34,341 bases of DNA, taken from the IMG/VR virus record IMGVR_UViG_2602041549_000012, one strand, 5' to 3'. Positions 9,199-34,341 of this stretch are shown here, one piece after another (within the stretch, counting starts at the first letter, position 1; every line of letters starts with the position of its first letter). A program made the translations under genes and the position numbers. The DNA is from a virus. Its lineage: Duplodnaviria > Heunggongvirae > Uroviricota > Caudoviricetes. Under the pieces are notes generated by a model. That model did not search any database and was not told the origin of the DNA. It was given only the letters and a program-made list of their open reading frames with translations.

Positions 9199-9211
9199 AG
9201 TGTTCTCTTGT

Positions 9212-14253: not shown

Positions 14254-14256
14254 CCG

Positions 14257-15812: not shown

Positions 15813-15815
15813 CGC

Positions 15816-16594: not shown

Positions 16595-16608
16595 ACGGAG
16601 TAAACACC

Positions 16609-17034
16609 ATGAAGAAATTATCCCTTTCACTGATGCTGAACGTGTCGCTGGCGCTGATGCTGGCACTGTCCCTGATTTACCCGCAGAGCGTGGCCGTCAG
16701 TTTTGTCGCCGCCTGGGCGATTCTGGCGACGGTTATCTGTGTGGTTGCCGGTGGTGTCGGCGTGTATGCCACTGAGTATGTACTGGAACGCTACGGGCGG
16801 GAGCTGCCGCCGGAATCGCTGGCCGTGAAGATTGTCACGGCGCTGTTTTTGCAGCCGGTGCCGTGGCGCAGGCGGTCAGTGGCTCTGGTAGTGATGGTGG
16901 CGACGTTTATCTCGCTGGTCGCTGCCGGGTGGATTTTTACCGCGCTGATTTATCTCGTGGCATCGGTGTTCTTCCGGCTGATACGTACGGCCTGCTGTCA
17001 GCGTTTTGAGGGGCGGGAACCATGTCAAAGCTGA
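16609..17034 (+). CDS. lysA: Lysis timing protein LysA (141 aa, multi-TM)
   Basis: Highly hydrophobic with four predicted helices. Follows K. Confidence 0.7.
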   Translation: MKKLSLSLMLNVSLALMLALSLIYPQSVAVSFVAAWAILATVICVVAGGVGVYATEYVLERYGRELPPESLAVKIVTALFLQPVPWRRRSVALVVMVATFISLVAAGWIFTALIYLVASVFFRLIRTACCQRFEGREPCQS

Positions 17035-17465
17035 TGATTGTGCTGGTCGTGTTGTTATCACTGGCGGTGCCGGGGCTGTTTCTGGTGAAGCATGAAAATG
17101 CCAGCCTGCGCACCTCACTGGACAGGGCGAACAGCGTCGCCAGCGGGCAGCAGACGACCATCACCATGCTGAAAAATCAGCTTCATGTTGCACTCACCAG
17201 GGCAGACAAAAACGAGCTGGCGCAGGTGGCACTGCGTCAGGAACTGGAGAACGCGGCGAAGCGTGAAGCACAGCGCGAGAAAACCATCACGAGGTTACTG
17301 AATGAAAACGAAGATTTTCGCCGCTGGTATGGTGCTGACCTGCCTGATGCTGTGCGCCGGTTGCACCAGCGCCCCGCCTGCACCGACGCCAGTGATTGTC
17401 GCCAACGTCTGCCCGAAAGTGAGTCTTTGCCCGATGCCGGGCAGCGACCCGGAGACGAACGGTGA
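17022..17465 (+). CDS. lysB: LysB, Rz-like inner-membrane spanin
   Basis: N-terminal TM helix (LMIVLVVLLSLAVPGLFLV) followed by a charged coiled-coil. Confidence 0.7.
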   Translation: MSKLMIVLVVLLSLAVPGLFLVKHENASLRTSLDRANSVASGQQTTITMLKNQLHVALTRADKNELAQVALRQELENAAKREAQREKTITRLLNENEDFRRWYGADLPDAVRRLHQRPACTDASDCRQRLPESESLPDAGQRPGDER

Positions 17466-17592
17466 TTTAAGTGCCGATATCCGGCAGCTTGAGAACGCGC
17501 TGGCACGCTGTGCCAGCCAGGTAAAAATGATTAAACACTGTCAGGACGAAAACGATGCTCAAACCCGACAGCCTGCGCAGGGCGCTGACTGA
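17302..17592 (+). CDS. lysC: LysC, Rz1-like outer-membrane lipoprotein spanin (96 aa), embedded in the +1 frame of lysB
   Basis: Lipobox LCAGC with a Pro-rich region. Overlaps the 3' half of lysB and the start of R. Confidence 0.65.
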   Translation: MKTKIFAAGMVLTCLMLCAGCTSAPPAPTPVIVANVCPKVSLCPMPGSDPETNGDLSADIRQLENALARCASQVKMIKHCQDENDAQTRQPAQGAD

Positions 17593-18022
17593 TGCCGTCA
17601 CGGTGCTGAAAACAAGCCCCGAGATGCTGCGGATATTCGTGGATAACGGGAGTATTGCCTCCACACTGGCGACGTCGCTGTCATTCGAAAAGCGTTACAC
17701 GCTCAATGTCATTGTGACCGACTTTACCGGTGATTTTGACCTGCTCATTGTGCCGGTGCTGGCGTGGCTGCGGGAAAATCAGCCCGACATCATGACCACC
17801 GACGAAGGCCAGAAAAAGGGCTTCACGTTTTATGCGGACATCAACAATGACAGCAGCTTTGATATCAGTATCAGCCTGATGCTGACCGAGCGCACGCTGG
17901 TCAGTGAGGTTGACGGTGCACTGCATGTGAAGAATATCCCGGAACCTCCGCCGCCGGAGCCGGTCACCCGCCCGGTGGAGCTTTATATCAATGGCGAACT
18001 GGTGAGCAAGTGGGATGAATGA
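17555..18022 (+). CDS. R: Tail completion protein R (155 aa)
   Basis: Synteny and length. Confidence 0.8.
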   Translation: MLKPDSLRRALTDAVTVLKTSPEMLRIFVDNGSIASTLATSLSFEKRYTLNVIVTDFTGDFDLLIVPVLAWLRENQPDIMTTDEGQKKGFTFYADINNDSSFDISISLMLTERTLVSEVDGALHVKNIPEPPPPEPVTRPVELYINGELVSKWDE

Positions 18023-18467
18023 GTTTAAGCGTTTTGAAGACCGGCTGACCGGACTGATTGAGTCGCTGTCACCGTCAGGGCGTCGGCGGCTGAGTGCAGA
18101 GCTGGCGAAGCGTCTGCGGCAGAGTCAGCAGCGTCGGGTGATGGCACAGAAAGCCCCGGACGGCACACCCTACGCGCCACGCCAGCAGCAGAGCGCCAGA
18201 AAAAAGACCGGTCGTGTTAAGCGAAAAATGTTTGCGAAACTTATCACCAGTCGTTTTTTGCATATCCGCGCCAGCCCGGAACAGGCATCAATGGAATTTT
18301 ACGGCGGGAAGTCGCCGAAAATCGCCAGTGTGCATCAGTTCGGTCTGTCGGAAGAAACCCGGAAAGACGGTAAGAAAATTGATTATCCGGCGCGTCCTCT
18401 GCTCGGCTTTACCGGTGAGGATGTGCAGATGATTGAAGAGATTATCCTGGCTCACCTTGAGCGTTAG
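18015..18467 (+). CDS. S: Tail completion protein S (150 aa)
   Basis: Synteny and length. Confidence 0.8.
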   Translation: MNEFKRFEDRLTGLIESLSPSGRRRLSAELAKRLRQSQQRRVMAQKAPDGTPYAPRQQQSARKKTGRVKRKMFAKLITSRFLHIRASPEQASMEFYGGKSPKIASVHQFGLSEETRKDGKKIDYPARPLLGFTGEDVQMIEEIILAHLER

Positions 18468-18497
18468 TTTTATCCAGGCAGAGGCTGATGCGCAATT

Positions 18498-18532
18498 AAA
18501 CATTGAGCGGCCATGCTGGTCGCTCAATGTTT
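18498..18532. terminator. Perfect 12-bp-stem hairpin between S and the minus-strand cargo gene
   Basis: AAACATTGAGCG-11 nt-CGCTCAATGTTT. Lies between two convergent gene ends. Confidence 0.4.
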
Positions 18533-18538
18533 AGAGGT

Positions 18539-19324
18539 TTATGAGTGATTTTTATTTGATGCTTTGTATTCTAAAACCTTCTTATTGGCGTAAAAGAATT
18601 TTGTATATGACAGGAATATAACCAGACCTGAAGTGAAATAGACGAGGGATAGTATTAATAATGCTTTTTTGTGACTGTTATTATCTTTAATCTCCTGGCT
18701 TAACCATTCGGAGTCCTCCTCGTTTAGCTGTAAGAGCTTATTGCAGGCGATCTCAGGAAGTGTGTCTTTTATAAATACGTTTTGCAGTCTCTTGCAATCG
18801 GCAAGGGTATAAGTTTTATTAAATTCAACTGCTTTATTTTTGAAGGATAAAAGAACTTTGTCACTATAAACATAGTACATCATGTTTTTATATGGTATGC
18901 CTATGGCATCCCTTACTATAACGGATTGTTCGTTGTGTATGTAACATGCGAGGAGAATGTAAAAAATACAGGCCAGAATTACAATTATTGTTTTAATTAT
19001 GTGTGGTGGTTTTGTTATGTCACCCCAGATGCGAGTAAGGAAAAAATACGATGTTTTTAGTTTTCCATCAATCAGTCCCTGCTGTATCATTCTCACATTT
19101 TCAATGCCTGATACATTGATTCCGTTAATTATTTTAAATAGTTGAATGTCGCGCCACTCGCGGTCAAGTCTTTTTAATTTTTTGTCTGAATATCCAAAAT
19201 TGAAATAATGTGCAATAAGCCTCATAAGGTTACTTTTACCAAAGCTAAAAAATGCTAATACTGCAAAGCTACAAAGGAAAAAAACGATTAGCCCCCACAC
19301 ATTAGTCACATTATAGCTGACCAT
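18539..19324 (-). CDS. AT-rich cargo membrane protein (261 aa, about 3 TM helices) at the S/V junction
   Basis: Opposite strand to the late genes. AAGGAG RBS. Hydrophobic helices at the N-terminus, middle and C-terminus. Strongly AT-rich. Occupies the position of P2 orf30. Confidence 0.7.
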   Translation of the reverse strand: MVSYNVTNVWGLIVFFLCSFAVLAFFSFGKSNLMRLIAHYFNFGYSDKKLKRLDREWRDIQLFKIINGINVSGIENVRMIQQGLIDGKLKTSYFFLTRIWGDITKPPHIIKTIIVILACIFYILLACYIHNEQSVIVRDAIGIPYKNMMYYVYSDKVLLSFKNKAVEFNKTYTLADCKRLQNVFIKDTLPEIACNKLLQLNEEDSEWLSQEIKDNNSHKKALLILSLVYFTSGLVIFLSYTKFFYANKKVLEYKASNKNHS

Positions 19325-19407
19325 TACGCTCTCCTTGAATGTTGTCTGGTAGTTCTACAAATGAATCCAGATAGCATAACTTTTATATATTGTGCAATCT
19401 CACATGC

Positions 19408-20043
19408 ATGAACACTCTCGCAAATATTCAGGAACTCGCGCGCGCACTGCGCAACATGATTCGCACCGGCATTATCGTCGAAACCGACCTTAACGCCGGT
19501 CGCTGCCGCGTGCAGACCGGCGGCATGTGCACCGACTGGCTTCAGTGGCTGACCCATCGCGCAGGACGTTCGCGCACATGGTGGGCACCTTCCGTGGGGG
19601 AACAGGTGCTGATTCTGGCCGTGGGCGGTGAACTCGACACGGCGTTCGTTCTGCCGGGGATTTATTCCGGCGATAACCCCGCGCCGTCTGTGTCGGCGGA
19701 TGCCCTGCATATCCGTTTCCCTGACGGGGCGGTGATTGAATATGAACCCGAAACCAGTGCACTCACGGTAAGCGGAATTAAAACGGCCAGCGTGACGGCT
19801 TCTGATTCTGTTACTGCCACGGTGCCGGTGGTCATGGTGAAAGCATCAACCCGCGTCACCCTGGACACCCCGGAGGTGGTCTGCACCAACAGGCTGATTA
19901 CCGGCACGCTGGAAGTGCAGAAGGGCGGGACGATGCGCGGCAACATTGAACACACCGGCGGTGAACTCTCATCAAACGGTAAGGTACTGCATACCCATAA
20001 ACACCCCGGCGACAGCGGCGGCACAACCGGGAGTCCTTTATGA
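19408..20043 (+). CDS. V: Baseplate spike protein V
   Basis: 211 aa from the internal ATG (MNTLANIQEL). Synteny. Confidence 0.85.
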   Translation: MNTLANIQELARALRNMIRTGIIVETDLNAGRCRVQTGGMCTDWLQWLTHRAGRSRTWWAPSVGEQVLILAVGGELDTAFVLPGIYSGDNPAPSVSADALHIRFPDGAVIEYEPETSALTVSGIKTASVTASDSVTATVPVVMVKASTRVTLDTPEVVCTNRLITGTLEVQKGGTMRGNIEHTGGELSSNGKVLHTHKHPGDSGGTTGSPL

Positions 20044-20387
20044 CAGCGCGTTATCTCGGAATGAATCGCAGTGATGGCCTGACTGTCACTGACCTTGAGC
20101 ATATCAGCCAGAGTATCGGCGATATCCTGCGCACACCGGTCGGCTCACGGGTGATGCGTCGTGATTACGGCTCGTTGCTGGCATCAATGATTGACCAGCC
20201 GCAGACCCCGGCGCTTGAGTTGCAGATTAAGGTCGCCTGTTACATGGCGGTGCTGAAATGGGAACCCCGCGTCACCCTGTCATCCGTCACCACTGAGCGC
20301 AGTTTTGACGGGCGAATGACGGTCACGTTAACCGGCCAGCACAACGACACCGGCCAGCCACTTTCATTAACCATACCTGTGAGTTGA
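20040..20387 (+). CDS. W: Baseplate protein W (115 aa)
   Basis: Synteny and length. Confidence 0.85.
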   Translation: MTARYLGMNRSDGLTVTDLEHISQSIGDILRTPVGSRVMRRDYGSLLASMIDQPQTPALELQIKVACYMAVLKWEPRVTLSSVTTERSFDGRMTVTLTGQHNDTGQPLSLTIPVS

Positions 20388-20391
20388 AACC

Positions 20392-21300
20392 ATGCCGATT
20401 ATCGACCTGAACCAGCTACCCGCACCAGATGTGGTCGAGGAGCTGGACTTTGAAAGCATTCTCGCTGAACGCAAGGCGACACTGATTTCCCTTTACCCGG
20501 AAGATCAGCAGGAGGCGGTCGCCCGTACCCTGACACTGGAATCTGAGCCTCTCGTCAAACTGCTGGAAGAAAATGCTTATCGTGAGCTTATCTGGCGTCA
20601 GCGTGTGAATGAGGCCGCACGGGCGGTGATGCTGGCCTGTGCCGCCGGTAATGACCTTGATGTGATTGGTGCCAATTACAACACCACGCGCCTGACTATC
20701 ACCCCGGCAGATGATTCGACCATTCCGCCGACACCGGCAGTGATGGAATCTGACACCGATTATCGTCTGCGTATTCAGCAGGCTTTTGAGGGCTTAAGCG
20801 TCGCCGGGTCAGTGGGAGCCTATCAGTATCATGGTCGCAGTGCTGACGGGCGTGTCGCGGATATTTCTGTCACCAGTCCGTCTCCTGCCTGTGTCACCAT
20901 CTCTGTGCTGTCACGTGAAAATAACGGCGTCGCATCCGAAGACCTGCTGGCTGTGGTGCGTAACGCCCTTAATGGCGAGGACGTCAGGCCGGTGGCCGAC
21001 CGCGTGACCGTGCAGTCTGCCGCCATCGTTGAATACCAGATAAACGCCACGCTTTACCTTTACCCTGGTCCCGAAAGCGAACCCATCCGCGCTGCCGCTG
21101 TGAAAAAGCTGGAAGCGTATATCACGGCACAGCACCGGCTGGGGCGCGACATCCGTCTGTCTGCCATTTATGCCGCTTTGCATGTGGAAGGTGTGCAGCG
21201 TGTCGAACTGGCTGCACCACTGGCCGACATCGTGCTCAACAGTACGCAGGCGTCTTTCTGTACCGAATACCGCGTCGTGACCGGAGGCTCGGATGAGTGA
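20392..21300 (+). CDS. J: Baseplate protein J (302 aa)
   Basis: Synteny and length. Confidence 0.85.
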   Translation: MPIIDLNQLPAPDVVEELDFESILAERKATLISLYPEDQQEAVARTLTLESEPLVKLLEENAYRELIWRQRVNEAARAVMLACAAGNDLDVIGANYNTTRLTITPADDSTIPPTPAVMESDTDYRLRIQQAFEGLSVAGSVGAYQYHGRSADGRVADISVTSPSPACVTISVLSRENNGVASEDLLAVVRNALNGEDVRPVADRVTVQSAAIVEYQINATLYLYPGPESEPIRAAAVKKLEAYITAQHRLGRDIRLSAIYAALHVEGVQRVELAAPLADIVLNSTQASFCTEYRVVTGGSDE

Positions 21301-21823
21301 TTCGCGACTGCTGCCGACCGGCTCATCACCGCTTGAGGTCGCCGCCGCAAAAGCCTGTGCGGAAATTGAAAAAACGCCGGTCAGTATTCGTGAGCTGTGG
21401 AACCCGGACACCTGTCCGGCAAATCTGCTGCCGTGGCTGGCGTGGGCGTTTTCGGTCGACAGGTGGGATGAAAAGTGGCCGGAAGCGACAAAACGCGCCG
21501 TTATCCGCGATGCGTATTTCATCCACTGTCATAAAGGCACAATAGGTGCAATCCGGCGTGTGGTGGAGCCGCTCGGCTATCTCATCAACGTGACGGAGTG
21601 GTGGGAAAACAGTGACCCGCCCGGCACCTTCCGGCTTGATATTGGTGTACTGGAAAGCGGCATCACAGAGGCAATGTATCAGGAAATGGAACGGCTGATT
21701 GCTGATGCCAAACCTGCAAGCCGCCACCTTATTGGCCTGAACATTACCCGGGACATTCCCGGCTACCTGTTCGCCGGTGGTGTGGCTTACGACGGCGATG
21801 TAATTACGGTTTACCCCGGATAA
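21293..21823 (+). CDS. I: Baseplate protein I (176 aa)
   Basis: Synteny and length. Confidence 0.8.
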   Translation: MSDSRLLPTGSSPLEVAAAKACAEIEKTPVSIRELWNPDTCPANLLPWLAWAFSVDRWDEKWPEATKRAVIRDAYFIHCHKGTIGAIRRVVEPLGYLINVTEWWENSDPPGTFRLDIGVLESGITEAMYQEMERLIADAKPASRHLIGLNITRDIPGYLFAGGVAYDGDVITVYPG

Positions 21824-21833
21824 GTGAGGAATA

Positions 21834-24176
21834 ATGAGCACAAAATTCAGAACCGTTATCACCACTGCCGGTGCAGCAAAGCTGGCAGCGGCAACCGCAC
21901 CGGGAGGGCGGAAGGTCAACATTACCACGATGGCCGTCGGGGATGGCGGTGGTAAATTGCCTGTCCCGGATGCCGGACAGACCGGGCTTATCCACGAAGT
22001 CTGGCGACATGCGCTGAACAAAATCAGCCAGGACAAACGAAACAGTAATTATATTATCGCAGAGCTGGTTATTCCGCCGGAGGTGGGCGGTTTCTGGATG
22101 CGTGAGCTTGGCCTGTACGATGATGCGGGAACGTTAATTGCTGTGGCGAACATGGCCGAAAGTTATAAGCCAGCTCTTGCCGAAGGCTCAGGGCGTTCGC
22201 AGACCTGCCGTATGGTCATCATCGTCAGCAGTGTGACCTCAGTGGCGCTGACCATTGACACCACAACGGTGATGGCGACGCAGGATTACGTTGATGACAA
22301 AATTGCAGAACATGAACAGTCACGACGTCACCCGGACGCCTCGCTGACCGCAAAAGGTTTTACTCAGTTAAGCAGTGCGACCAACAGCACGTCTGAAACA
22401 CTGGCTGCAACGCCAAAGGCGGTAAAGGCCGCATATGACCTTGCTAACGGGAAATATACCGCACAGGACGCCACCACAGCACGAAAAGGCCTTGTCCAGC
22501 TCAGTAGTGCCACCAACAGCACGTCTGAAACGCTCGCCGCAACACCAAAAGCGGTAAAAGCAGCATATGACCTTGCTAACGGGAAATATACCGCACAGGA
22601 CGCCACCACAGCACGAAAAGGCCTTGTCCAGCTCAGTAGTGCCACCAACAGCACGTCTGAAACGCTCGCCGCAACACCAAAAGCGGTAAAAGCAGCATAT
22701 GACCTTGCTAACGGGAAATATACCGCACAGGACGCCACCACAGCGCGAAAAGGCCTTGTTCAGCTCAGTAGCGCCACCAACAGCGATTCTGAAACGCTTG
22801 CGGCAACGCCAAAGGCGGTTAAGACAGCGTATGACCTTGCTAACGGGAAATACACTGCACAGGATGCCACCACAGCGCGAAAAGGTCTTGTCCAGCTCAG
22901 TAGCGCCACCAACAGTGATTCTGAAACGCTGGCTGCAACACCAAAAGCGGTGAAGTCTGCCTATGACAATGCTGAAAAACGTCTTCAGAAAGATCAGAAC
23001 GGTGCGGATATTCCGGGAAAGGATACCTTCACGAAAAATATCGGTGCCTGTCGTGCTTATAGCGGCGCTTTGAGCACTGAAGCCGGAAACTGGACAACCG
23101 CTCAGTTTATTGACTGGCTAGAGTCTCAGGGAGCCTTTAATCATCCTTACTGGATGTGCAAGTGTTCCTGGTCATATGGTAATAACAAAATTATTACCGA
23201 TACTGACTGTGGGACTATTCATCTTGCAGGTTGCGTGATTGAGGTTATGGGCGTTAAAGCAGCAATGACCATTCGTGTGACCACTCCGAGTACATCAAGC
23301 GGTGGTGGTACCACCAGTGCGCAATTCACGTATATCAATCACGGAGCTGATTATGCGCCGGGCTGGCGACGCGACTACAATACGAAAAATAAGCAACCGG
23401 CTTTTGCATTAGGGAAAACAGGAAATACGGTTGCAAATAATAAAGCGGTAGGATGGAACTGGGACAGTGGTGCTTATTGTGCACAGGATGGCGGCGCATC
23501 AAAAATGGTGTTGCATTTTTACACGGGTGAGGGAAGTTGTCCGGCAATGCAGTTTCTTGTGGATTATAAAAACAGGGGGATTTTTTACAGGTCGGCACGT
23601 GATGGGTATGGATTTGAGGCTGACTGGTCAGAGTTTTATACCACATCACGAAAGCCAACACCTGCGGATATTCTTGCTCTGGCATTATCAGGCGGAAGCA
23701 TGTCAGGCAGCATAAAATTTATCAATGATGCCTTCCTGATTTGGGAAAGAAACACTGACTGGGCGAAAATTGGATTTAAAAATGATTCAGATGCTGATTC
23801 TGACTCATACATGTGGTTTGAAACTGGTGATAATGGCAATGAATATTTTAAATGGCGCATCAGGTCTGGCAGCACAACAAAAGATCTGATGACGCTTAAG
23901 TCTGATGCACTACGGGTTACCGGGCAGGTGATACCATCAAATTTCAGCAATTTTGACTCCCGCTATGTCCGGGATATCCGACTTGGTGGTGCCGCCACAT
24001 ACAAACCTGCGAACAATGGCATGACATGGACACATCAGGCACCGTCCGGGTGTGTATATACCGGCATTATTGTTCAGGATACCGGCTCAAACTCTGCCGA
24101 TAACATTGGTGGCGTATATTACAGACCGGTTCAGAAATACATTAACGGGACATGGTACAACGTGGCGCAGGTATAA
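21834..24176 (+). CDS. H: Tail fiber protein H (780 aa) with internal tandem repeats and an AT-rich distal domain
   Basis: Conserved N-terminus (MSTKFRTVITTAGAAKLAAA...). Phage-fibre repeat motif SATNSTSETLAATPKAVK. Longer than P2 H as I recall it. Confidence 0.85.
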   Translation: MSTKFRTVITTAGAAKLAAATAPGGRKVNITTMAVGDGGGKLPVPDAGQTGLIHEVWRHALNKISQDKRNSNYIIAELVIPPEVGGFWMRELGLYDDAGTLIAVANMAESYKPALAEGSGRSQTCRMVIIVSSVTSVALTIDTTTVMATQDYVDDKIAEHEQSRRHPDASLTAKGFTQLSSATNSTSETLAATPKAVKAAYDLANGKYTAQDATTARKGLVQLSSATNSTSETLAATPKAVKAAYDLANGKYTAQDATTARKGLVQLSSATNSTSETLAATPKAVKAAYDLANGKYTAQDATTARKGLVQLSSATNSDSETLAATPKAVKTAYDLANGKYTAQDATTARKGLVQLSSATNSDSETLAATPKAVKSAYDNAEKRLQKDQNGADIPGKDTFTKNIGACRAYSGALSTEAGNWTTAQFIDWLESQGAFNHPYWMCKCSWSYGNNKIITDTDCGTIHLAGCVIEVMGVKAAMTIRVTTPSTSSGGGTTSAQFTYINHGADYAPGWRRDYNTKNKQPAFALGKTGNTVANNKAVGWNWDSGAYCAQDGGASKMVLHFYTGEGSCPAMQFLVDYKNRGIFYRSARDGYGFEADWSEFYTTSRKPTPADILALALSGGSMSGSIKFINDAFLIWERNTDWAKIGFKNDSDADSDSYMWFETGDNGNEYFKWRIRSGSTTKDLMTLKSDALRVTGQVIPSNFSNFDSRYVRDIRLGGAATYKPANNGMTWTHQAPSGCVYTGIIVQDTGSNSADNIGGVYYRPVQKYINGTWYNVAQV
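22353..22967 (+). repeat. Tandem 132-bp (44-aa) repeats inside H, about 4.7 copies
   Basis: Units start at 22353, 22485, 22617, 22749 and 22881 (partial). Units 2 and 3 appear identical at the DNA level. Confidence 0.85.
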
Positions 24177-24179
24177 TTT

Positions 24180-24707
24180 ATGCAGCATTTGATAAATATA
24201 ACGGCAGGTAATCCAAAAACGGTTGAACAATATCAATTGACAAAGAACTTTGATGTCGTCTGGTTTTTTACAGAAGATGGTAAGAACTGGTACGAAGAAC
24301 AAAAGTATTTTGCTGATGACACGATAAAAATAGCGTACGACAAAGATAATATCATCCGCTATGTGGAAAAGGATGTGACAGCTATCAGACCGGATGGATT
24401 AAGTGTGGTTGAAGTGGCGGATATTACTGCTAACCGACGGGCGGACATTTCAGGGAACTGGATGTTTAAGGACGGCAAAGTGATTAAACGCATTTATACG
24501 GCAGAGGAATTGCAGCAGCAGGCAGAAAATCGGAAAGCCAGACTTCTTGCAGATGCTGAATCCGTAATTTTGCCGCTGGAACGCGCTGTCAGGCTGAATA
24601 TGGCGACGGATGAAGAGCGCACACGACTGGAAGCATGGGAACGCTACAGCGTTCTGGTCAGTCGTGTGGATCCTGCAAATCCTGAATGGCCGGAAATGCC
24701 GCAATAA
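24180..24707 (+). CDS. G: Tail fiber assembly chaperone G (175 aa)
   Basis: Immediately follows H. Length and position. Confidence 0.75.
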
Positions 24708-24840
24708 GTTGTATGAGCTCTGGTGGGAGCCTACATATCTATGGCACAGAGTAAAGCCTAATCTGACAGTCCGCTCTGTGCCAAAAGCGGACTAACATAT
24801 AATTTCACATTCAATCAAGAGTCATGATGATAGCATTGGA

Positions 24841-25701
24841 TCATTGTTTTGTATTCTTTAATAACTCTAAGTCGATAACAAGTATACGTGTTGGAATCGG
24901 GGCTTTATTTGGGTACAAACGTTCTCTTTTCAAATTAAAAGCCTCGCCGCTTTTAAATAACCTAGAAATGTCATGACCTTTAAATACATAATCTAAGTTT
25001 GCATCGTTTTCGTGAATTTGATGCAACTCTATTTTTTCATTCTCGGGCACTATGACGTTTGAGTATGATAGAGAAATCACATCTGGCGGTTGTTGTGGTG
25101 TTGTATTTCTATAAATATATTTACTTCTGGTTCCTATACACTCCAGAAGACAACAAAGCGGGTATGTCGTTCTAACCTTGTGTATTGAATTGAAATTCTT
25201 CCCTCTTTTTTTATGTATTGCACTAACTACCACTTCAAGATTAGCAACAGTAATTCCCATTTTTTTTCTTGATATTGGTCTCTTACAATTCCAATACTCA
25301 TCAAGTTCAGCTTGTTTTGGGTAATTGTAAAAAGCATAGAGTGGTACTGCGTTTGTATCTTTAGCGTACTGCTGTAATATATTATGTTGTAAAATTTTAT
25401 TTTTCCCTACCTCATGCTTTAGCTTTTTATATGAATACTGGTTATGATCCATTTTTTTTGCTTGTATTGCATATCGTACCCAACCAGTTTTCCTGCTCCC
25501 AATCCACCATTCCCAATCTGTTCCTTTTGTTGACTCTTTATCTTTGGTGGTTTTCTTTATAGTCACATAACTATAATCTCGCCTAGCAATCTCTAATAAA
25601 ATTAAATCACTAATTGTTTCTTCACCTATAGATAATCCTAATTTTTTTCCATCATGAAGCAAATCCCAGACATACTCAGAAATATCAGAAAAAACACTCA
25701 T
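24841..25701 (-). CDS. AT-rich cargo protein (286 aa) at the G/FI junction, function unknown
   Basis: Minus strand between G and FI, the position of P2 Z/fun. The track start at 25704 is TTG, with an ATG at 25701. Strongly AT-rich. Possible PD-(D/E)xK-like N-terminal motifs (TDWEWWIG ... YAIQAKK). Confidence 0.65.
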   Translation of the reverse strand: MSVFSDISEYVWDLLHDGKKLGLSIGEETISDLILLEIARRDYSYVTIKKTTKDKESTKGTDWEWWIGSRKTGWVRYAIQAKKMDHNQYSYKKLKHEVGKNKILQHNILQQYAKDTNAVPLYAFYNYPKQAELDEYWNCKRPISRKKMGITVANLEVVVSAIHKKRGKNFNSIHKVRTTYPLCCLLECIGTRSKYIYRNTTPQQPPDVISLSYSNVIVPENEKIELHQIHENDANLDYVFKGHDISRLFKSGEAFNLKRERLYPNKAPIPTRILVIDLELLKNTKQ

Positions 25702-25981
25702 CAACTCAACCTATATAAATGATATATAATTCATGTCTAAATATCGTCTTTGCCACTCAAAACTTTAGGGTGATGAAAAAATATAATGAAGTTCAAAAGG
25801 AACTAAGCGTACGATATCCATAATTATACTCTTTCAGACTTTCTGGATAACCCATCTTGGGAAGAGATTCCGCAAAACGCAAACCAACGTCCGCTCCTCG
25901 CTCAAAACAGGCTGTCAGATTTGATAGCGTTTCGGCTATGTAAATAGTCAGTCGGAAAATAAGTGAGTACAAATCAGGACA

Positions 25982-26008
25982 GGCGGGCGAATTGCCCGCC
26001 TTTTCTTT
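25982..26008 (+). terminator. Rho-independent terminator upstream of FI
   Basis: GGCGGGC-gaatt-GCCCGCC followed by TTTTCTTT. Confidence 0.45.
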
Positions 26009-26104
26009 ATCTGTTGTTTCATCCACTGACCAGCCAGGTCAAATAGCGTCTCATGCACTGCCCAACAGAAAATAGTTGCACCAATTAACCACGGAGTTAA
26101 ACGG

Positions 26105-27295
26105 ATGAGTGACTATCATCACGGCGTGCAGGTGCTGGAGATTAACGACGGCACCCGCGTCATTTCCACCGTATCCACGGCCATTGTCGGCATGGTCTGC
26201 ACGGCCAGCGATGCGGATGCGGAAACCTTCCCCCTCAATAAACCTGTGCTGATTACCAATGTGCAGAGCGCAATTGCAAAGGCCGGTAAAAAAGGCACGC
26301 TGGCGGCATCGTTGCAGGCCATCGCCGACCAGTCAAAACCGGTCACCGTTGTCGTGCGCGTGGAAGACGGCACCGGCGATGACGAAGAAACGAAACTCGC
26401 GCAGACCGTTTCCAATATCATCGGCACCACCGACGAAAACGGTCAGTACACCGGACTGAAAGCCCTGCTGGCGGCGGAGTCGGTAACCGGTGTTAAACCG
26501 CGTATTCTCGGTGTGCCGGGACTGGATACCAAAGAGGTGGCTGTTGCACTGGCATCCGTCTGTCAGAAGCTGCGCGCTTTCGGATATATCAGCGCATGGG
26601 GCTGTAAGACTATTTCCGAGGTGAAAGCCTACCGCCAGAATTTCAGCCAGCGTGAGCTGATGGTCATCTGGCCGGATTTCCTCGCATGGGATACGGTCAG
26701 CAGCACCACCGCCACCGCGTATGCCACCGCCCGTGCGTTGGGTCTGCGCGCTAAAATCGACCAGGAGCAGGGCTGGCATAAAACGCTGTCCAATGTCGGG
26801 GTAAACGGTGTTACCGGCATCAGCGCCTCTGTATTCTGGGATTTGCAGGAGTCCGGCACCGATGCTGACCTGTTGAACGAGTCAGGTGTCACAACGCTGA
26901 TTCGCCGTGACGGTTTCCGCTTCTGGGGTAACCGTACCTGCTCTGATGACCCACTGTTCCTCTTTGAAAACTACACCCGCACCGCGCAGGTGCTGGCCGA
27001 CACGATGGCTGAGGCGCACATGTGGGCGGTGGATAAGCCCATCACCGCAACGCTGATTCGCGACATCGTTGACGGCATCAATGCCAAATTCCGTGAGCTG
27101 AAAACAAACGGCTATATCGTGGATGCGACCTGCTGGTTCAGCGAAGAATCCAACGATGCGGAAACCCTCAAGGCCGGAAAACTGTATATCGACTATGACT
27201 ATACCCCGGTGCCTCCTCTCGAAAACCTGACCCTGCGCCAGCGTATTACTGATAAATATCTGGCAAATCTGGTCACCTCGGTTAACAGCAATTAA
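26105..27295 (+). CDS. FI: Tail sheath protein FI (396 aa)
   Basis: Synteny and length. Confidence 0.9.
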   Translation: MSDYHHGVQVLEINDGTRVISTVSTAIVGMVCTASDADAETFPLNKPVLITNVQSAIAKAGKKGTLAASLQAIADQSKPVTVVVRVEDGTGDDEETKLAQTVSNIIGTTDENGQYTGLKALLAAESVTGVKPRILGVPGLDTKEVAVALASVCQKLRAFGYISAWGCKTISEVKAYRQNFSQRELMVIWPDFLAWDTVSSTTATAYATARALGLRAKIDQEQGWHKTLSNVGVNGVTGISASVFWDLQESGTDADLLNESGVTTLIRRDGFRFWGNRTCSDDPLFLFENYTRTAQVLADTMAEAHMWAVDKPITATLIRDIVDGINAKFRELKTNGYIVDATCWFSEESNDAETLKAGKLYIDYDYTPVPPLENLTLRQRITDKYLANLVTSVNSN

Positions 27296-27307
27296 GGAGC
27301 CTGACCG

Positions 27308-27826
27308 ATGGCAATGCCGCGCAAACTCAAGTTAATGAACGTCTTTCTGAACGGCTACAGCTATCAGGGCGTTGCAAAGTCCGTCACGCTGCCAAAACTG
27401 ACCCGTAAGCTCGAAAACTATCGTGGTGCGGGGATGAACGGCAGCGCACCGGTAGACCTCGGCCTTGATGACGATGCGCTGTCAATGGAGTGGTCGCTCG
27501 GGGGCTTCCCGGATTCGGTTATCTGGGAACTTTACGCCGCAACCGGTGTGGATGCCGTACCGATTCGTTTTGCAGGCTCTTACCAGCGCGACGATACCGG
27601 CGAAACGGTGGCCGTCGAGGTGGTCATGCGTGGACGTCAGAAAGAAATCGACACCGGCGAGGGGAAACAGGGAGAAGATACCGAGTCGAAAATCTCCGTG
27701 GTCTGCACTTATTTCCGGCTGACGATGGACGGTAAGGAGCTGGTCGAAATTGACACCATCAACATGATTGAGAAGGTGAACGGCGTCGACCGGCTGGAGC
27801 AACACCGCCGCAATATCGGCCTGTGA
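27308..27826 (+). CDS. FII: Tail tube protein FII (172 aa)
   Basis: Synteny and length. Confidence 0.9.
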   Translation: MAMPRKLKLMNVFLNGYSYQGVAKSVTLPKLTRKLENYRGAGMNGSAPVDLGLDDDALSMEWSLGGFPDSVIWELYAATGVDAVPIRFAGSYQRDDTGETVAVEVVMRGRQKEIDTGEGKQGEDTESKISVVCTYFRLTMDGKELVEIDTINMIEKVNGVDRLEQHRRNIGL

Positions 27827-27882
27827 TTTTCATCCGGTCAGCCAGGCTGACCGGTTAACCCCGATTCAGAAGTGAGAAAACC

Positions 27883-28158
27883 ATGAACAAAGAAAATGTG
27901 ATTACCCTGGACAATCCGGTCAAGCGTGGTGAGCAGGTTATCGAACAGGTCACGCTGATGAAACCCAATGCCGGGACGCTGCGCGGTGTCAGTCTGGCAG
28001 CGGTCGCGAACTCCGAAGTCGATGCACTGATTAAGGTGCTGCCGCGCATGACGGCACCGATGCTGACCGAGCAGGAAGTCGCCGCGCTGGAACTGCCTGA
28101 CCTTGTGGCGCTGGCCGGTAAGGTGGTCGGTTTTTTGTCGCCGAACTCGGTGCAGTGA
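27883..28158 (+). CDS. E: Tail assembly chaperone E (91 aa)
   Basis: Synteny. Ends just after the T6G slippery run. Confidence 0.8.
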   Translation: MNKENVITLDNPVKRGEQVIEQVTLMKPNAGTLRGVSLAAVANSEVDALIKVLPRMTAPMLTEQEVAALELPDLVALAGKVVGFLSPNSVQ

Positions 28159-28310
28159 CGTTTCCGAAAAACCTCTCGGTCGATGACCTGATGGCGGATG
28201 TGGCAGTGATATTTCACTGGCCGCCATCAGAACTGTATCCCATGAGCCTGACCGAACTCATCACATGGCGCGAAAAGGCGCTCCGGCGAAGCGGAAACAC
28301 GAATGAGTAA
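27883..28310 (+). CDS. E': E+E' fusion made by a programmed -1 frameshift at TTTTTTG (28131-28137)
   Basis: The -1 frame stays open from the slippery site to a TAA at 28308-28310, overlapping the T start. Matches the known P2 E/E' mechanism. Confidence 0.6.
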
Positions 28311-30750
28311 CAATGTAAAATTACAGGTATTGCTCAGGGCTGTTGACCAGGCATCCCGCCCGTTTAAATCCATCCGTACAGCGAGCAAGTCGCTGTCGGG
28401 GGATATCCGGGAAACACAAAAATCACTGCGCGAGCTGAACGGTCACGCATCCCGTATTGAGGGGTTCCGCAAGACCAGTGCACAGCTCGCCGTGACTGGT
28501 CATGCACTTGAAAAGGCGCGGCAGGAAGCCGAAGCCCTTGCCACACAGTTTAAAAATACCGAACGACCGACCCGTGCTCAGGCGAAAGTGCTGGAATCCG
28601 CAAAGCGTGCGGCGGAGGACTTACAGGCGAAATATAACCGCCTGACGGATTCCGTTAAACGCCAGCAGCGGGAACTGGCCGCTGTGGGAATTAATACCCG
28701 CAATCTTGCACATGATGAGCAGGGACTGAAAAACCGTATCAGTGAAACCACCGCACAGCTTAACCGTCAGCGCGACGCGCTGGCGCGTGTCAGTGCGCAA
28801 CAGGCAAAACTTAACGCAGTCAAACAGCGTTATCAGGCCGGAAAGGAACTGGCCGGAAATATGGCCTCAGTGGGCGCTGCCGGTGTGGGGATTGCGGCGG
28901 CGGGAACGATGGCCGGAGTTAAGTTGCTGATGCCCGGTTATGAGTTTGCGCAGAAAAACTCAGAATTGCAGGCTGTGCTCGGTGTGGCAAAAGACTCCGC
29001 CGAAATGGCTGCACTACGCAAGCAGGCGCGCCAGCTCGGCGACAATACCGCCGCCTCGGCGGATGATGCAGCCGGTGCGCAGATTATTATCGCGAAAGCC
29101 GGTGGGGATGTTGATGCCATTCAGGCGGCAACGCCGGTCACGCTGAATATGGCGCTGGCGAACCGTCGCACGATGGAAGAAAATGCCGCCCTGCTGATGG
29201 GGATGAAATCCGCCTTTCAGCTTTCAAACGATAAGGTCGCTCATATCGGGGATGTTCTCTCCATGACGATGAACAAAACCGCCGCCGATTTTGACGGCAT
29301 GAGCGATGCGCTGACCTATGCCGCACCTGTGGCAAAAAATGCCGGTGTCAGCATTGAAGAAACCGCCGCAATGGTCGGGGTACTGCATGATGCAAAAATT
29401 ACCGGTTCAATGGCGGGGACGGGAAGCCGTGCCGTGTTAAGCCGCCTGCAGGCACCGACGGGAAAAGCATGGGATGCACTCAAAGAGCTTGGCGTTAAAA
29501 CCTCGGACAAAAAGGGAAATATGCGTCCGTTGTTCACCATTCTGAAAGAAATGCAGGCCAGTTTTGAGAAAAACCGGCTCGGTACTGCCCAGCAGGCCGA
29601 ATACATGAAAACCATTTTCGGGGAGGAGGCCAGCTCAGCCGCCGCTGTGCTGATGACTGCCGCGTCAATCGGAAAGCTGGACAAACTGACCGCTGCGTTT
29701 AAAGCCTCAGACGGAAAGACCGCAGAACTGGTAAATATCATGCAGGACAACCTCGGCGGTGACTTTAAGGAGTTTCAGTCCGCTTATGAGGCGGTGGGGA
29801 CTGACCTGTTTGACCAGCAGGAAGGCGCACTGCGTAAGCTCACTCAGACGGCCACAAAGTATGTGTTAAAACTCGACGGCTGGATCCAGAAAAACAAATC
29901 ACTGGCGTCAACCATCGGCCTCATTGTCGGTGGCGCGCTGGCGCTTACTGGCATCATCGGTGCCATTGGTCTTGTAGCCTGGCCGGTTATCACCGGCATC
30001 AATGCCATTATCGCGGCAGCAGGCGCAATGGGGGCAATCTTCACGACGGTTGGTAGTGCTGTTATGACGGCCATCGGGGCGATTAGCTGGCCGGTTGTGG
30101 CCGTGGTGGCCGCCATTGTCGCCGGGGCGTTGCTTATCCGTAAATACTGGGAGCCTGTCAGCGCATTCTTTGGCGGTGTGGTTGAAGGGCTGAAAGCGGC
30201 ATTTGCGCCGGTGGGGGAACTGTTCACGCCACTTAAGCCGGTGTTTGACTGGCTGGGCGAAAAGTTACAGGCCGCGTGGCAGTGGTTTAAAAACCTGATT
30301 GCCCCGGTCAAAGCCACCCAGGACACCCTGAACCGTTGCCGTGATACGGGCGTCATGTTCGGGCAGGCACTGGCTGACGCGCTGATGCTGCCGCTTAATG
30401 CGTTCAACAAACTGCGCAGCGGTATTGACTGGGTACTGGAAAAGCTCGGGGTCATCAACAAAGAGTCAGACACACTTGACCAGACCGCCGCCAGAACTCA
30501 TGCCGCCACGTATGGCACCGGTGGTTATATTCCGGCGACCAGCTCTTATGCAGGCTATCAGGCTTATCAGCCAGTCACGGCACCGGCTGGCCGCTCTTAT
30601 GTGGACCAGAGTAAAAACGAATATCACATCAGCCTGACGGGTGGTACTGCGCCGGGGACACAGCTTGACCGCCAGTTACAGGATGCGCTCGAAAAATACG
30701 AGCGGGATAAACGTGCGCGTGCCCGTGCCAGCATGATGCATGACGGTTAA
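28303..30750 (+). CDS. T: Tail tape measure protein T (815 aa)
   Basis: Long Ala/Gly-rich protein with hydrophobic segments. Synteny. Confidence 0.85.
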   Translation: MSNNVKLQVLLRAVDQASRPFKSIRTASKSLSGDIRETQKSLRELNGHASRIEGFRKTSAQLAVTGHALEKARQEAEALATQFKNTERPTRAQAKVLESAKRAAEDLQAKYNRLTDSVKRQQRELAAVGINTRNLAHDEQGLKNRISETTAQLNRQRDALARVSAQQAKLNAVKQRYQAGKELAGNMASVGAAGVGIAAAGTMAGVKLLMPGYEFAQKNSELQAVLGVAKDSAEMAALRKQARQLGDNTAASADDAAGAQIIIAKAGGDVDAIQAATPVTLNMALANRRTMEENAALLMGMKSAFQLSNDKVAHIGDVLSMTMNKTAADFDGMSDALTYAAPVAKNAGVSIEETAAMVGVLHDAKITGSMAGTGSRAVLSRLQAPTGKAWDALKELGVKTSDKKGNMRPLFTILKEMQASFEKNRLGTAQQAEYMKTIFGEEASSAAAVLMTAASIGKLDKLTAAFKASDGKTAELVNIMQDNLGGDFKEFQSAYEAVGTDLFDQQEGALRKLTQTATKYVLKLDGWIQKNKSLASTIGLIVGGALALTGIIGAIGLVAWPVITGINAIIAAAGAMGAIFTTVGSAVMTAIGAISWPVVAVVAAIVAGALLIRKYWEPVSAFFGGVVEGLKAAFAPVGELFTPLKPVFDWLGEKLQAAWQWFKNLIAPVKATQDTLNRCRDTGVMFGQALADALMLPLNAFNKLRSGIDWVLEKLGVINKESDTLDQTAARTHAATYGTGGYIPATSSYAGYQAYQPVTAPAGRSYVDQSKNEYHISLTGGTAPGTQLDRQLQDALEKYERDKRARARASMMHDG

Positions 30751-30764
30751 GGAGGTGACGAAAA

Positions 30765-31244
30765 ATGATGCTCGCGTTAGGTATGTTTGTTTTTATGCGC
30801 CAGACGCTGCCACACCAGACCATGCAGCGTGAATCAGATTATCGCTGGCCGTCAAATTCCCGTATCGGTAAACGGGATGCCTTTCAGTTTCTCGGTGTGG
30901 GTGAGGAAAACATGACGCTTGCCGGCGTGCTTTATCCCGAACTGACCGGCGGGAAGCTGACGATGACCACGCTCAGGCTGATGGCAGAGGAAGGCCGGGC
31001 GTGGCCGTTGCTGGATGGCACCGGCATGATTTACGGCATGTATGTCATCAGCAGGGTGAGTGAAACAGGGAGTATTTTCTTTGCAGACGGCACACCCCGG
31101 AAAATTGATTTTACGCTGTCGCTCACCCGCGTGGATGAATCACTGGCCGCGCTTTATGGCGATATCGGTAAACAGGCGGAATCGCTCATCGGTAAGGCTG
31201 GCAGTGTGGCGACCAGATTCACGGGTATGACGGGGGCGGGATAA
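30765..31244 (+). CDS. U: Tail protein U (159 aa)
   Basis: Synteny and length. Confidence 0.8.
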   Translation: MMLALGMFVFMRQTLPHQTMQRESDYRWPSNSRIGKRDAFQFLGVGEENMTLAGVLYPELTGGKLTMTTLRLMAEEGRAWPLLDGTGMIYGMYVISRVSETGSIFFADGTPRKIDFTLSLTRVDESLAALYGDIGKQAESLIGKAGSVATRFTGMTGAG

Positions 31245-32407
31245 TGCTGGATGCGCTGACATTTGATGCAGGCAGTACGCTGACGCCGGATTACATGCTG
31301 ATGCTCGACAGCAGGGATATTACCGGCAATATCAGCGACCGTCTGATGAGCATGACCCTGACGGATAACCGGGGCTTTGAGGCTGACCAGCTTGATATTG
31401 AACTGAACGATGCCGACGGGCAGGTCGAACTGCCGGTTCGTGGTGCTGTTCTGACGGTGTATATCGGCTGGAAAGGTTTTGCCCTGGTATGCAAAGGGAA
31501 ATTTACCGTTGATGAGGTTGAACACCGGGGCGCACCGGATGTGGTCACCATCCGCGCCCGGAGTGCAGATTTTCGCGGGACGCTCAATTCCCGCCGTGAA
31601 GGCTCATGGCATGACACCACGCTCGGTGCGATTGTTGAGGCGATAGCCTCCCGTAACAAGCTGGAAGCCAGTGTCGCGCCGTCACTGGACGGAATTAAAA
31701 TCCCGCACATCGACCAGTCGCAGGAGTCTGATGCGAAATTCCTGGCCCGTCTTGCAGAACGCAACGGCGGTGAGGTGTCGGTAAAAATGGGAAAACTGTT
31801 GTTTCTCAAAGCGGGGCAGGGGGTGACGGCCAGCGGTAAAAAAATCCCGCAGGTCACCATAACCCGCAGCGACGGCGACCGCCATCATTTTGCGATTGCT
31901 GACCGTGGAGCCTATACCGGCGTAACGGCAAAGTGGTTACACACCAAAGACCCGAAGCCGCAAAAGCAGAAGGTAAAACTGAAACGCAAAAAGAAAGAGA
32001 AACACCTGCGCGCACTGGAGCACCCGAAAGCGAAACCAGTCACGCAGAAGAAAGCGCCAAAAGTACCGGAAGCGCGCGAAGGTGAATACATGGCTGGTGA
32101 GGCTGACAATGTTTTTGCCCTGACTACGGTATATGCCACAAAAGCGCAGGCCATGCGCGCCGCTCAGGCGAAGTGGGATAAACTGCAACGGGGCGTTGCG
32201 GAGTTCTCCATCAGCCTGGCTACCGGTCGGGCAGATATTTACACGGAAACGCCGGTCAAAGTATCAGGCTTTAAGCGCGTCATAGACGAGCAGGACTGGA
32301 CAATCACTAAGGTGACACATTTTCTGAATAATAGCGGTTTCACGACGTCCTTAGAGCTTGAGGTCAGGCTTTCTGATGTGGAGTACGAAACAGAAGATGA
32401 TGGGTGA
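31244..32407 (+). CDS. D: Tail protein D (387 aa)
   Basis: Synteny and length. ATGA overlap with U. Confidence 0.85.
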   Translation: MLDALTFDAGSTLTPDYMLMLDSRDITGNISDRLMSMTLTDNRGFEADQLDIELNDADGQVELPVRGAVLTVYIGWKGFALVCKGKFTVDEVEHRGAPDVVTIRARSADFRGTLNSRREGSWHDTTLGAIVEAIASRNKLEASVAPSLDGIKIPHIDQSQESDAKFLARLAERNGGEVSVKMGKLLFLKAGQGVTASGKKIPQVTITRSDGDRHHFAIADRGAYTGVTAKWLHTKDPKPQKQKVKLKRKKKEKHLRALEHPKAKPVTQKKAPKVPEAREGEYMAGEADNVFALTTVYATKAQAMRAAQAKWDKLQRGVAEFSISLATGRADIYTETPVKVSGFKRVIDEQDWTITKVTHFLNNSGFTTSLELEVRLSDVEYETEDDG

Positions 32408-32488
32408 TGTTTTTATTTTATCTGTTTGTTTTATAAGGATAAATTAACTAAAATGGCACCATCAACAAAACCGGAAGAGGTGCTCGCG

Positions 32489-32707
32489 ATGTTTCATTGT
32501 CCTTTATGCCAGCATGCCGCACATGCGCGTACAAGTCGCTATATCACTGACACGACAAAAGAGCGTTATCACCAGTGCCAGAACGTGAATTGCAGCGCCA
32601 CGTTCATCACTTATGAGTCGGTACAGCGATACATCGTGAAGCCGGGAGAAGTCCACGCCGTAAGGCCGCACCCGTTGCCGTCAGGGCAGCAAATTATGTG
32701 GATGTAA
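32489..32707 (+). CDS. ogr: Late-gene transcription activator Ogr (72 aa, zinc finger)
   Basis: From the internal ATG: MFHCPLCQH...CQNVNCSATF (CxxC...CxxxxC). Last phage gene before attR. Confidence 0.85.
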   Translation: MFHCPLCQHAAHARTSRYITDTTKERYHQCQNVNCSATFITYESVQRYIVKPGEVHAVRPHPLPSGQQIMWM

Positions 32708-32720
32708 TTACAAACAGGAA

Positions 32721-32744
32721 GCCCCTCAGTCGAGGGGCTTTTTT
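32721..32744 (+). terminator. Rho-independent terminator after ogr
   Basis: GCCCCTC-agtc-GAGGGGC followed by TTTTTT. Confidence 0.7.
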
Positions 32745-32807
32745 GTCGATGTGGTCAATGTGTGGACGTGACCAGAAATAAATCCTTTTATTTCAGTGTA
32801 TTACGCG

Positions 32808-32835
32808 TAAAAAATAAGCCCGTGTAAGGGAGATT
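32808..32835. repeat. attR: attR core: 28-bp direct repeat identical to 476-503
   Basis: Exact duplicate of the attL core. Overlaps the 3' terminator of cyaR. Confidence 0.8.
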
Positions 32836-32895
32836 ACACAGGCTAAGGAGGTGGTTCCTGGTACAGCTAGCATTTTATGGGTTATGTTTTTCAGC
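32809..32895 (-). ncRNA. cyaR: CyaR (RyeE) sRNA, Hfq-dependent and CRP-activated
   Basis: The reverse complement reads GCTGAAAAACATAACCCATAAAATGCTAGC...CCTCCTTAGCC...CCCTTACACGGGCTTATTTTTT, matching CyaR as I recall it. It ends in a terminator hairpin plus U-run that coincides with the att core. Confidence 0.8.
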
Positions 32896-32979
32896 GAAAC
32901 GGATGATAACCTTAATAAATGCAGCTGTATGTGATCGGTTTCTAAGAATTTTCCATCCGGGAAAAATAATCGAAATTAA

Positions 32980-34341
32980 TCACTTACCGTGGGGGTTACG
33001 CGTGGTTTCCCCGGAGAAATTACGCATCAGCAGCGCGTAATTTAGCTCAAGATCCTGCGGCACCGGGAGCCACACAGTATAACCATCGCCTGGTGCTACC
33101 GGCATAGCTTCGCCTTTGGCGTTTTCCATGTGCTCAAGGGTAAAGTTAATGTTGCCTTGCGGCGTCATCAGCTCAAGGCTGTCGCCAACGGAGAATTTAT
33201 TTTTCACCGCTACCGCCGCGAGGTCCCCCTTGCGCTCACCGGTAAACTCACCAACAAACTGCTGGCGGTCAGAAACCGAATAACCGTATTCGTAGTTCTG
33301 ATAATCGTCGTGAGTATGACGACGCAGGAAACCTTCGGTATAGCCACGATGCGCCAGACCTTCCAGAGTTTCCAGCAGGCTGGTATCGAACGGTTTGCCC
33401 GCAGCGGCATCATCGATAGCTTTACGATAAACCTGTGCGGTGCGTGCGCAATAGTAGAAAGATTTAGTACGGCCTTCGATCTTCAGCGAATGCACGCCCA
33501 TTTTGGTCAGGCGTTCTACATGGGCGATGGCGCGCAGATCTTTCGAGTTCATGATGTAAGTGCCGTGCTCATCTTCAAACGCGGTCATATACTCGCCCGG
33601 ACGCTGGGCCTCTTCGATCATAAACACTTTGTCGGTTGGTGCGCCGATACCCAGCGTCGGCTCAACATTTTGCACCGGAATCGGCTCGTACTTGTGTACG
33701 ATGTTGCCAACATCATCTTCTTTCCCTTCCTGGACGTTGTACTCCCAGCGGCAGGCGTTGGTGCAGGTGCCCTGGTTCGGGTCGCGCTTGTTGATATAGC
33801 CAGAGAGCAGGCAGCGACCGGAGTAGGCCATGCACAGCGCGCCGTGAACGAAGATCTCGATCTCCATATCCGGCACCTGATTGCGGATCTCTTCAATCTC
33901 TTCCAGCGACAGCTCGCGAGAGAGGATCACGCGGGTCAGGCCCATTTGCTGCCAGAATTTCACCGTCGCCCAGTTCACGGCGTTAGCCTGCACCGAAAGG
34001 TGGATCGGCATTTCAGGGAAGTGCTCACGCACCAGCATAATCAGCCCTGGATCGGACATAATCAGCGCATCCGGCCCCATTTCCACCACCGGTTTCAGGT
34101 CACGGATAAAGGTTTTCAGCTTGGCGTTGTGCGGTGCAATGTTGACCACGACATAAAACTTTTTCCCCAGCGCGTGGGCTTCATTGATGCCGAGCTGAAG
34201 ATTTTCGTGGTTGAATTCGTTGTTGCGCACACGCAGGGAATAACGCGGCTGGCCCGCATAAACAGCATCTGCGCCATAAGCGAAAGCGTAACGCATATTT
34301 TTCAGCGTTCCCGCCGGGGAAAGGAGTTCCGGTTTAAACAT
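32980..34341 (-). CDS. yegQ: Peptidase U32-family protein YegQ (RlhA-type), 453 aa
   Basis: Full-length ORF reaching the window edge. Sequence recognised as E. coli YegQ. Host flank to the right of attR. Confidence 0.8.
   Translation of the reverse strand: MFKPELLSPAGTLKNMRYAFAYGADAVYAGQPRYSLRVRNNEFNHENLQLGINEAHALGKKFYVVVNIAPHNAKLKTFIRDLKPVVEMGPDALIMSDPGLIMLVREHFPEMPIHLSVQANAVNWATVKFWQQMGLTRVILSRELSLEEIEEIRNQVPDMEIEIFVHGALCMAYSGRCLLSGYINKRDPNQGTCTNACRWEYNVQEGKEDDVGNIVHKYEPIPVQNVEPTLGIGAPTDKVFMIEEAQRPGEYMTAFEDEHGTYIMNSKDLRAIAHVERLTKMGVHSLKIEGRTKSFYYCARTAQVYRKAIDDAAAGKPFDTSLLETLEGLAHRGYTEGFLRRHTHDDYQNYEYGYSVSDRQQFVGEFTGERKGDLAAVAVKNKFSVGDSLELMTPQGNINFTLEHMENAKGEAMPVAPGDGYTVWLPVPQDLELNYALLMRNFSGETTRNPHGK

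Follow-up and report, generated by a model that had tools for sequence, protein, structure and literature searches.

A P2-type prophage whose attR junction overlaps an unchanged cyaR small RNA gene

We found that the window (the whole 34,341-nt stretch of DNA analyzed) almost certainly contains the attR junction of a P2-type prophage at the preferred E. coli site of P2, the 3′ end of the small RNA gene cyaR, with CyaR itself unchanged. In the mechanism that we propose, the phage integrase would recombine the 27-bp attP core with an identical 27 bp of the chromosome, which encode the terminator loop, the 3′ stem arm and the U-tract of CyaR. Integration would duplicate the core, and the attR copy would remain attached to the promoter, seed and 5′ stem arm of the chromosome; the lysogen would accordingly encode exactly the same 87-nt CyaR, and the attL copy would be left as an orphan 3′ fragment. 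As the phage and host cores are identical, the hybrid formed at attR encodes an unchanged CyaR. We infer that this strain probably transcribes and terminates CyaR in an Hfq-competent form, and that its prophage is probably still excisable. The first-pass annotation had placed a prophage at the 3′ terminator of cyaR, and this placement is borne out by a P2-type integrase (583-1596), an Ogr protein (32489-32707) and 97% identity to P2. For annotation, the region should be labeled as a P2-type attR overlapping an intact cyaR, with the prophage bounds at 476-503 and 32808-32835 (Table 1).

Table 1. Features of the window, with positions counted from its first letter.
Feature	Position	Strand	Basis and remarks
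yegR, chromosomal left-flank gene, 105 aa	1..318	+	ORF; annotated as yegR in matching E. coli records
Degenerate P2-type P-arm Int site relic	430..459		Bacterial flank beside the attL core; TCGATGTGGTCAATGGAAGACGGTGACCAG
attL core	476..503		Repeats the final 27 nt of cyaR; without the 5′ stem arm, not a hairpin
P2-like (Peduovirus) prophage body	504..32807		32.3 kb; ends from the empty-site and P2 attP alignments
Phage P′ side	520..617		Cox-binding region 520-593; P′ arm Int sites 591-617, CTGTGGACACTGTGTGGACAC; transferred from P2 annotation
Tyrosine integrase, P2-type	583..1596	-	Pfam Int_N 2.8e-24, Phage_integrase 8.7e-22; aligns to P2 int
Candidate two-gene cargo	7451-9198	+	Flanked by replication gene A and portal gene Q, the P2 tin/old position
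Two opposite-strand ORFs	18539-19710	-	Inserted amid tail and baseplate genes
DUF6615 protein, 287 aa	24841-25704	-	Opposite strand, between tail-fiber and tail-sheath genes, the P2 Z/fun position
ogr, late-gene activator, last phage gene before attR	32489..32707	+	Pfam Ogr_Delta 1.1e-21; P2 annotation
ogr / F-operon intrinsic terminator	32718..32745	+	P2 annotation; folds at -19.6 kcal/mol (+) and -16.9 kcal/mol (-)
Phage P arm	32746..32810		Int arm-type sites 32746-32773; IHF site 32777-32810; transferred from P2 annotation
attR core	32808..32835		P2 attP core = 32809-32835
CyaR U-tract	32816-32809	-	UUAUUUUUU, directly after the terminator hairpin
CyaR terminator hairpin	32844-32817	-	11 bp; -15.9 kcal/mol, z = -6.3
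CyaR seed	32858-32845	-	GGAACCACCUCCUU; C-rich, presented in a small hairpin
cyaR (ryeE) sRNA gene, 87 nt	32809..32895	-	Rfam; identity to MG1655 b4438; fold and terminator scan
Putative cyaR promoter	32903..32945	-	-10 TATCAT and CRP-type site TGTGATCGGTTTCTAA
yegQ / trhP (peptidase U32 family), right-flank chromosomal gene	32980..34341	-	Pfam Peptidase_U32 5.2e-89; RefSeq annotation

The boundaries of the element are set by an exact 28-bp direct repeat, TAAAAAATAAGCCCGTGTAAGGGAGATT, which occurs at 476-503 and 32808-32835, brackets 32.3 kb, and was matched 0 times in 100 dinucleotide-preserving shuffles. Of the 28 bases in the repeat, 27 are labeled attP in the GenBank record of P2; we use 28 bp for the length of exact identity, which reaches one base beyond the CyaR U-tract when attR and attL are compared, and 27 bp for the published core. 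Joining the inner flanks of the two copies (32700-32835 and 504-640) recreates the attP of P2 almost base for base, and the P arm, IHF, Cox and P′ arm sites align near-identically to the annotated features of that phage. Within the annotated P arm, ATGTGGTCAATGTGTGGAC lies at 32749-32767, and the arm-type Int site consensus is given as tgTGGaCa (PMC3448106). Joining the outer flanks (300-503 and 32836-33000) recreates the unoccupied yegR-cyaR-yegQ site of the O157:H7 strain 1130, with 2 mismatches over ~370 bp. Likewise, similarity to thousands of unoccupied genomes ends at the core edges, namely at 32809 or 32801 of the window on one side and at 503 on the other. The attL copy was considered as a terminator for int and rejected, its minus-strand fold reaching only -3.5 kcal/mol (z = +0.78). 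With neither a 5′ arm nor a fold of its own, and lacking a promoter, this copy is therefore an inert orphan 3′ fragment.

The RNA gene at the other junction is recovered over its full length. The Rfam model CyaR_RyeE (RF00112) finds it at 32812-32897 (minus strand) and scores 100.7 bits where the gathering score is 47 (E 3.3e-19), the match spanning positions 1-85 of the 85 in the model without truncation and with 0 non-canonical pairs. It is also identical to MG1655 cyaR (b4438) at 87/87 nt (32809-32895, 100%), lies on the same strand as yegQ/trhP and downstream of it, and has the same position relative to trhP as in MG1655; thus, the alignments to Rfam and to the E. coli cyaR locus that the first-pass annotation had proposed as a check reveal no divergence. 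Read on the minus strand, that is, the cyaR strand, the core is AAUCUCCCUUACACGGGCUUAUUUUUU. Its first two bases are the last of the 5′ stem arm, 9 of whose 11 bases (32836-32844) fall outside the core; the rest of the core comprises the terminator loop, the 3′ arm in full and the U-tract. The seed, 5′ region and promoter of cyaR all lie on the chromosomal side. The earlier equation of the 28-bp attR core with the terminator and U-tract therefore stands, in the form that the exact repeat spans the U-tract, the loop and all of the 3′ arm. The further proposal, that the phage core restores the 3′ end of CyaR, is supported in that the gene is unchanged relative to the unoccupied strain and to K-12, with the qualification that phage- and host-derived core bases cannot be told apart from sequence, the two parental cores being identical.

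We collected 120 species-level cyaR loci, ranging from Escherichia to Proteus, Xenorhabdus and Yersinia, by an exact-pattern scan for the seed and the terminator loop. The terminator stem covaries across these species, with many arm pairs differing on both sides while still being paired, and the sequence of the terminator loop has been reported as conserved (PMC11795201). These patterns indicate a terminator native to the CyaR family, of which the phage core copies the E. coli version. A U.G wobble in the E. coli stem (5′ arm AGCCTGTGT, 3′ arm ACACGGGCT) was considered as a scar of phage overwriting and dropped, because a wobble at that stem position is common elsewhere, being present in 16 other species-level sequences, nearly always without a relic of a phage arm (the sole exception being locus L059). 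Imperfect terminator stems are common overall among the 120 loci.

A promoter-like element and a TCACA motif had also been proposed between yegQ and cyaR, and the conservation of both the site and the -10 element in 118 sequences favors a putative promoter there. With +1 set at 32895, where the annotated cyaR begins with a G, the -10 element TATCAT occupies 32908-32903 (-13 to -8) and the minus-strand TCACA 32934-32930 (-39 to -35). The 16-mer TGTGATCGGTTTCTAA (32930-32945) departs from TGTGA-N6-TCACA by 2 mismatches, reading TGTGA-N6-TCTAA, and is centered near -42.5. Matches to this pattern with <=2 mismatches are not enriched in the window (22 found vs. 15.4 expected); as the pattern is weak by itself, the CRP-type site draws its weight solely from its position and conservation. 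When the regions upstream of cyaR in 118 distinct Enterobacterales sequences are aligned, TTAGAA-ACC-GATCACAT is ~90-100% conserved as a block, as are the TA..AT positions of the -10 element. No promoter emerged from a generic sigma-70 scan of 32400-33100, because cyaR has no -35 hexamer. CRP-activated promoters centered near -42 typically function without a -35 hexamer; because promoters of this type lack that element and the footprint is strong, we did not count the negative scan against the cyaR promoter. As a separate observation, the imperfect CRP half (TTAGA on the cyaR strand, against the consensus TGTGA) is itself ~90-100% conserved in Enterobacterales (loci L005-L124), which suggests selection for a site that may be deliberately sub-consensus or dual-purpose. 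The CRP dependence of CyaR, which had been invoked as established knowledge, is indeed on record, having been reported for E. coli, Salmonella and Yersinia (PMC3333887, PMC11795201).

The body of the element appears to be that of a complete P2-type prophage, precisely integrated by core-for-core recombination. P2 (AF063097) aligns with 97.1% identity across 81% of a 24.5-kb query (504-25000 of the window), the non-P2 remainder of which was compared with P2 alone among phages, and the right end (32440-32835) matches P2 throughout at 98.0% identity. The tyrosine integrase gene, identified by its Pfam domains, adjoins one att site, and both int and ogr are intact. Several further genes in the element are candidate non-P2 cargo (Table 1). 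The pair at 7451-9198 is a candidate anti-phage defense system: it couples a 433-aa AAA_15/ABC-type ATPase (PADLOC PDC-M29A 2e-31, AriA 1.7e-25) with a 145-aa partner (PDC-M29B 2.8e-4). The DUF6615 protein returned no PADLOC or PHROG match, and its gene is probably another moron. Of the two opposite-strand ORFs at 18539-19710, the product of one (261 aa) belongs to phrog_2407, a family of unknown function, and that of the other (128 aa) to no family. We also observed that the 780-aa tail-fiber gene (21834-24176) holds five tandem 132-nt (44-aa) units at 22220-23011, which are 61-94% identical to the reference copy.

Other readings of this junction can be weighed against the same data. In one of them, the prophage would merely adjoin cyaR, with the repeat lying downstream of the 3′ end of the RNA and having no part in the transcript. 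We found nothing in favor of it, although the junction can seem intergenic because annotation pipelines often omit cyaR, the RefSeq rows displaying only yegQ and ogrK. The Rfam alignment passes through the terminator to 32812, and the annotated 87-nt cyaR of MG1655 ends at the equivalent of 32809, placing 27 nt of the RNA within the core. These two observations refute the reading, to which we accord practically no probability. It is also very improbable, if slightly less so, that integration alters the small RNA by creating a hybrid attR in which the terminator arm or U-tract weakens termination or Hfq binding. Such an effect is conceivable where the cores are not identical and the 3′ arm could thereby be changed, as illustrated by the imperfect stems that precede P2-type arm relics in Buttiauxella (L088, C.A mismatch) and Enterobacter (L103, G.U pair); in the window, however, the 87 nt are identical to those of K-12 and of the unoccupied strain, and so is the first base after the U-tract.

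That the element is a defective remnant flanked by fossil attL and attR sites, as in K-12, is unlikely, albeit considerably less remote than either of these. Remnants are common at this site, K-12 ogrK-yegZ being one, and the counts among 5426 complete E. coli genomes point the same way, with the ogr-core-cyaR-yegQ junction present in 1132 (21%) and the yegR-core-int junction in only 812 (~15%). Against this, the element is full-length at 32.3 kb, both cores are exact, int and ogr are intact, the arm, IHF and Cox sites are near-identical to those of P2, and the identity to that phage extends over most of the query as given above. We accordingly retain the reading of a precisely integrated P2-type prophage that leaves CyaR unchanged. 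Independently of this question, the junction frequencies show that the cyaR site is heavily used in E. coli.

While the terminated RNA is the same with and without the prophage, the DNA past the U-tract differs from 2 nt onward, with ACGCGTAAT... in the lysogen and ATGCATAAG... in the empty site. The CyaR terminator is reportedly leaky, with 41% read-through recorded from a plasmid in a delta-hfq strain (PMC9765468), and the fate of read-through transcripts should therefore differ in the lysogen. There, they would proceed toward ogr in antisense orientation and encounter its hairpin, which is terminator-like on the minus strand too (scan match 32740-32719) and could stop them before they cross ogr.

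The flank beside attL holds a further trace of phage activity. The segment at 430-459 aligns with the P arm at 32746-32775 with a local alignment score of 38, compared with 15.7 +/- 2.4 (maximum 29) in 500 shuffles. Two unoccupied E. coli sites (O157:H7 and L074) carry these bases as well, and the relic-bearing flank is matched in 5418 of the 5426 complete E. coli genomes. The 'empty' attB thus looks like a possible fossil attR, the scar of an older P2-type integration. Comparable arm relics were found 20-110 nt downstream of cyaR in five loci (L039, L059, L088, L103 and L115), hosted by two Citrobacter species, an Enterobacter sp., a Buttiauxella MAG and one further bacterium. These take the form GTCCACA...TTGACCACAT; a terminator hairpin and an IHF-like AAATAAAAGG block often accompany them, and at each of them the core matches the local terminator variant. 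A tblastn search with Ogr, D and Int against the DNA downstream of cyaR in the 120 species returned one match only, the Citrobacter youngae remnant (L115), and most of the cross-genus relics are accordingly short scars or divergent elements. The imperfect pairing of the 3′ and 5′ arms in L088 and L103 is what a phage-supplied 3′ arm would produce, in a sample too small to conclude from. We tentatively raise the idea, possible but in our estimate rather doubtful, that the unoccupied E. coli site is a fossil attR and that the 3′ arm and U-tract of CyaR have been overwritten time and again by phages of the P2 family. Were this so, the enterobacteria of today would owe part of the CyaR terminator to DNA brought in by phages, and the host terminator stem would co-evolve with phage cores and sometimes be perturbed by them. 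These relics, with their hint of long phage turnover at the CyaR terminator, are the only thread of some research value here.

As to known systems, integration at cyaR is already documented and common, and nothing is new in the main finding; it offers a clean textbook case of a phage using the 3′ end of a small RNA gene without damage and matters little beyond correct annotation. The attP of P2 has the same 27-nt core, near-identical Int P and P′ arms, IHF and Cox sites, and the same order of ogr, att and int. The prophage is a relative of P2 and not P2 itself, with a few different bases in the IHF region beside the core and candidate cargo genes that P2 lacks. The preferred E. coli attB of P2 is known as 'locI' of E. 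coli C, and we take MG1655 position 2165238 to lie within ~20 nt of the 3′ end of cyaR, having reckoned with the offset between MG1655 sequence versions. It is to this position that the P2 site was mapped (Nilsson et al., PMC3448106). The cryptic K-12 prophage PR-X (ogrK-yegZ) shares this attR junction: a 627-bp stretch from yegQ through cyaR and the core to ogr is 98.2% identical, and its 87-nt cyaR is identical to that of the window; it retains only ogr and a fragment of D, whereas the window holds a whole phage. The MG1655 record annotates PR-X as overlapping the last 18 nt of cyaR. On the yegR side of the same locus (L004, 2290-2340), the core is partial (TACACGGGCTTATTTTTTT) and fused to the gene D fragment, from which it follows that the PR-X deletion began inside the attL core copy and ran into gene D. 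Whether a lysogen of this kind loses or truncates CyaR, the outcome named earlier as contradicting a restored terminator, is in effect answered already by K-12, which has the same junction and an annotated 87-nt CyaR, and which we take to be the strain in which CyaR was characterized.

The statement that P2-like phages use the 3′ ends of small RNA genes likewise has precedent in print, including insertion at cyaR/ryeE itself (PMC3032704, PMC3603311). The 'cyaR RNA' is listed as the insertion site of Wphi2 in E. coli W, ogr-D′ in K-12 and P2*B in E. coli B (PMC3032704, table 2), and ryeE was previously known as a phage target (Bobay et al., citing Wassarman 2001; PMC3603311). Wphi2 and P2*B are P2-type prophages of other laboratory strains at the same small RNA gene, being different isolates that we liken to the present one by their insertion site. 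The same principle, in which the core duplicates the 3′ part of an RNA gene and the gene survives integration, is followed by 186 at tRNA-Ile, Fels-2 and SopE-phi at ssrA, P2-like phages at rybB and phages at ryeB/sdsR in Salmonella (PMC3448106, PMC3032704, PMC3603311, PMC3333887). Unlike in those systems, the target here is the terminator of an Hfq-dependent small RNA instead of a tRNA-like structure, and the core, with its 27 bp, is short.
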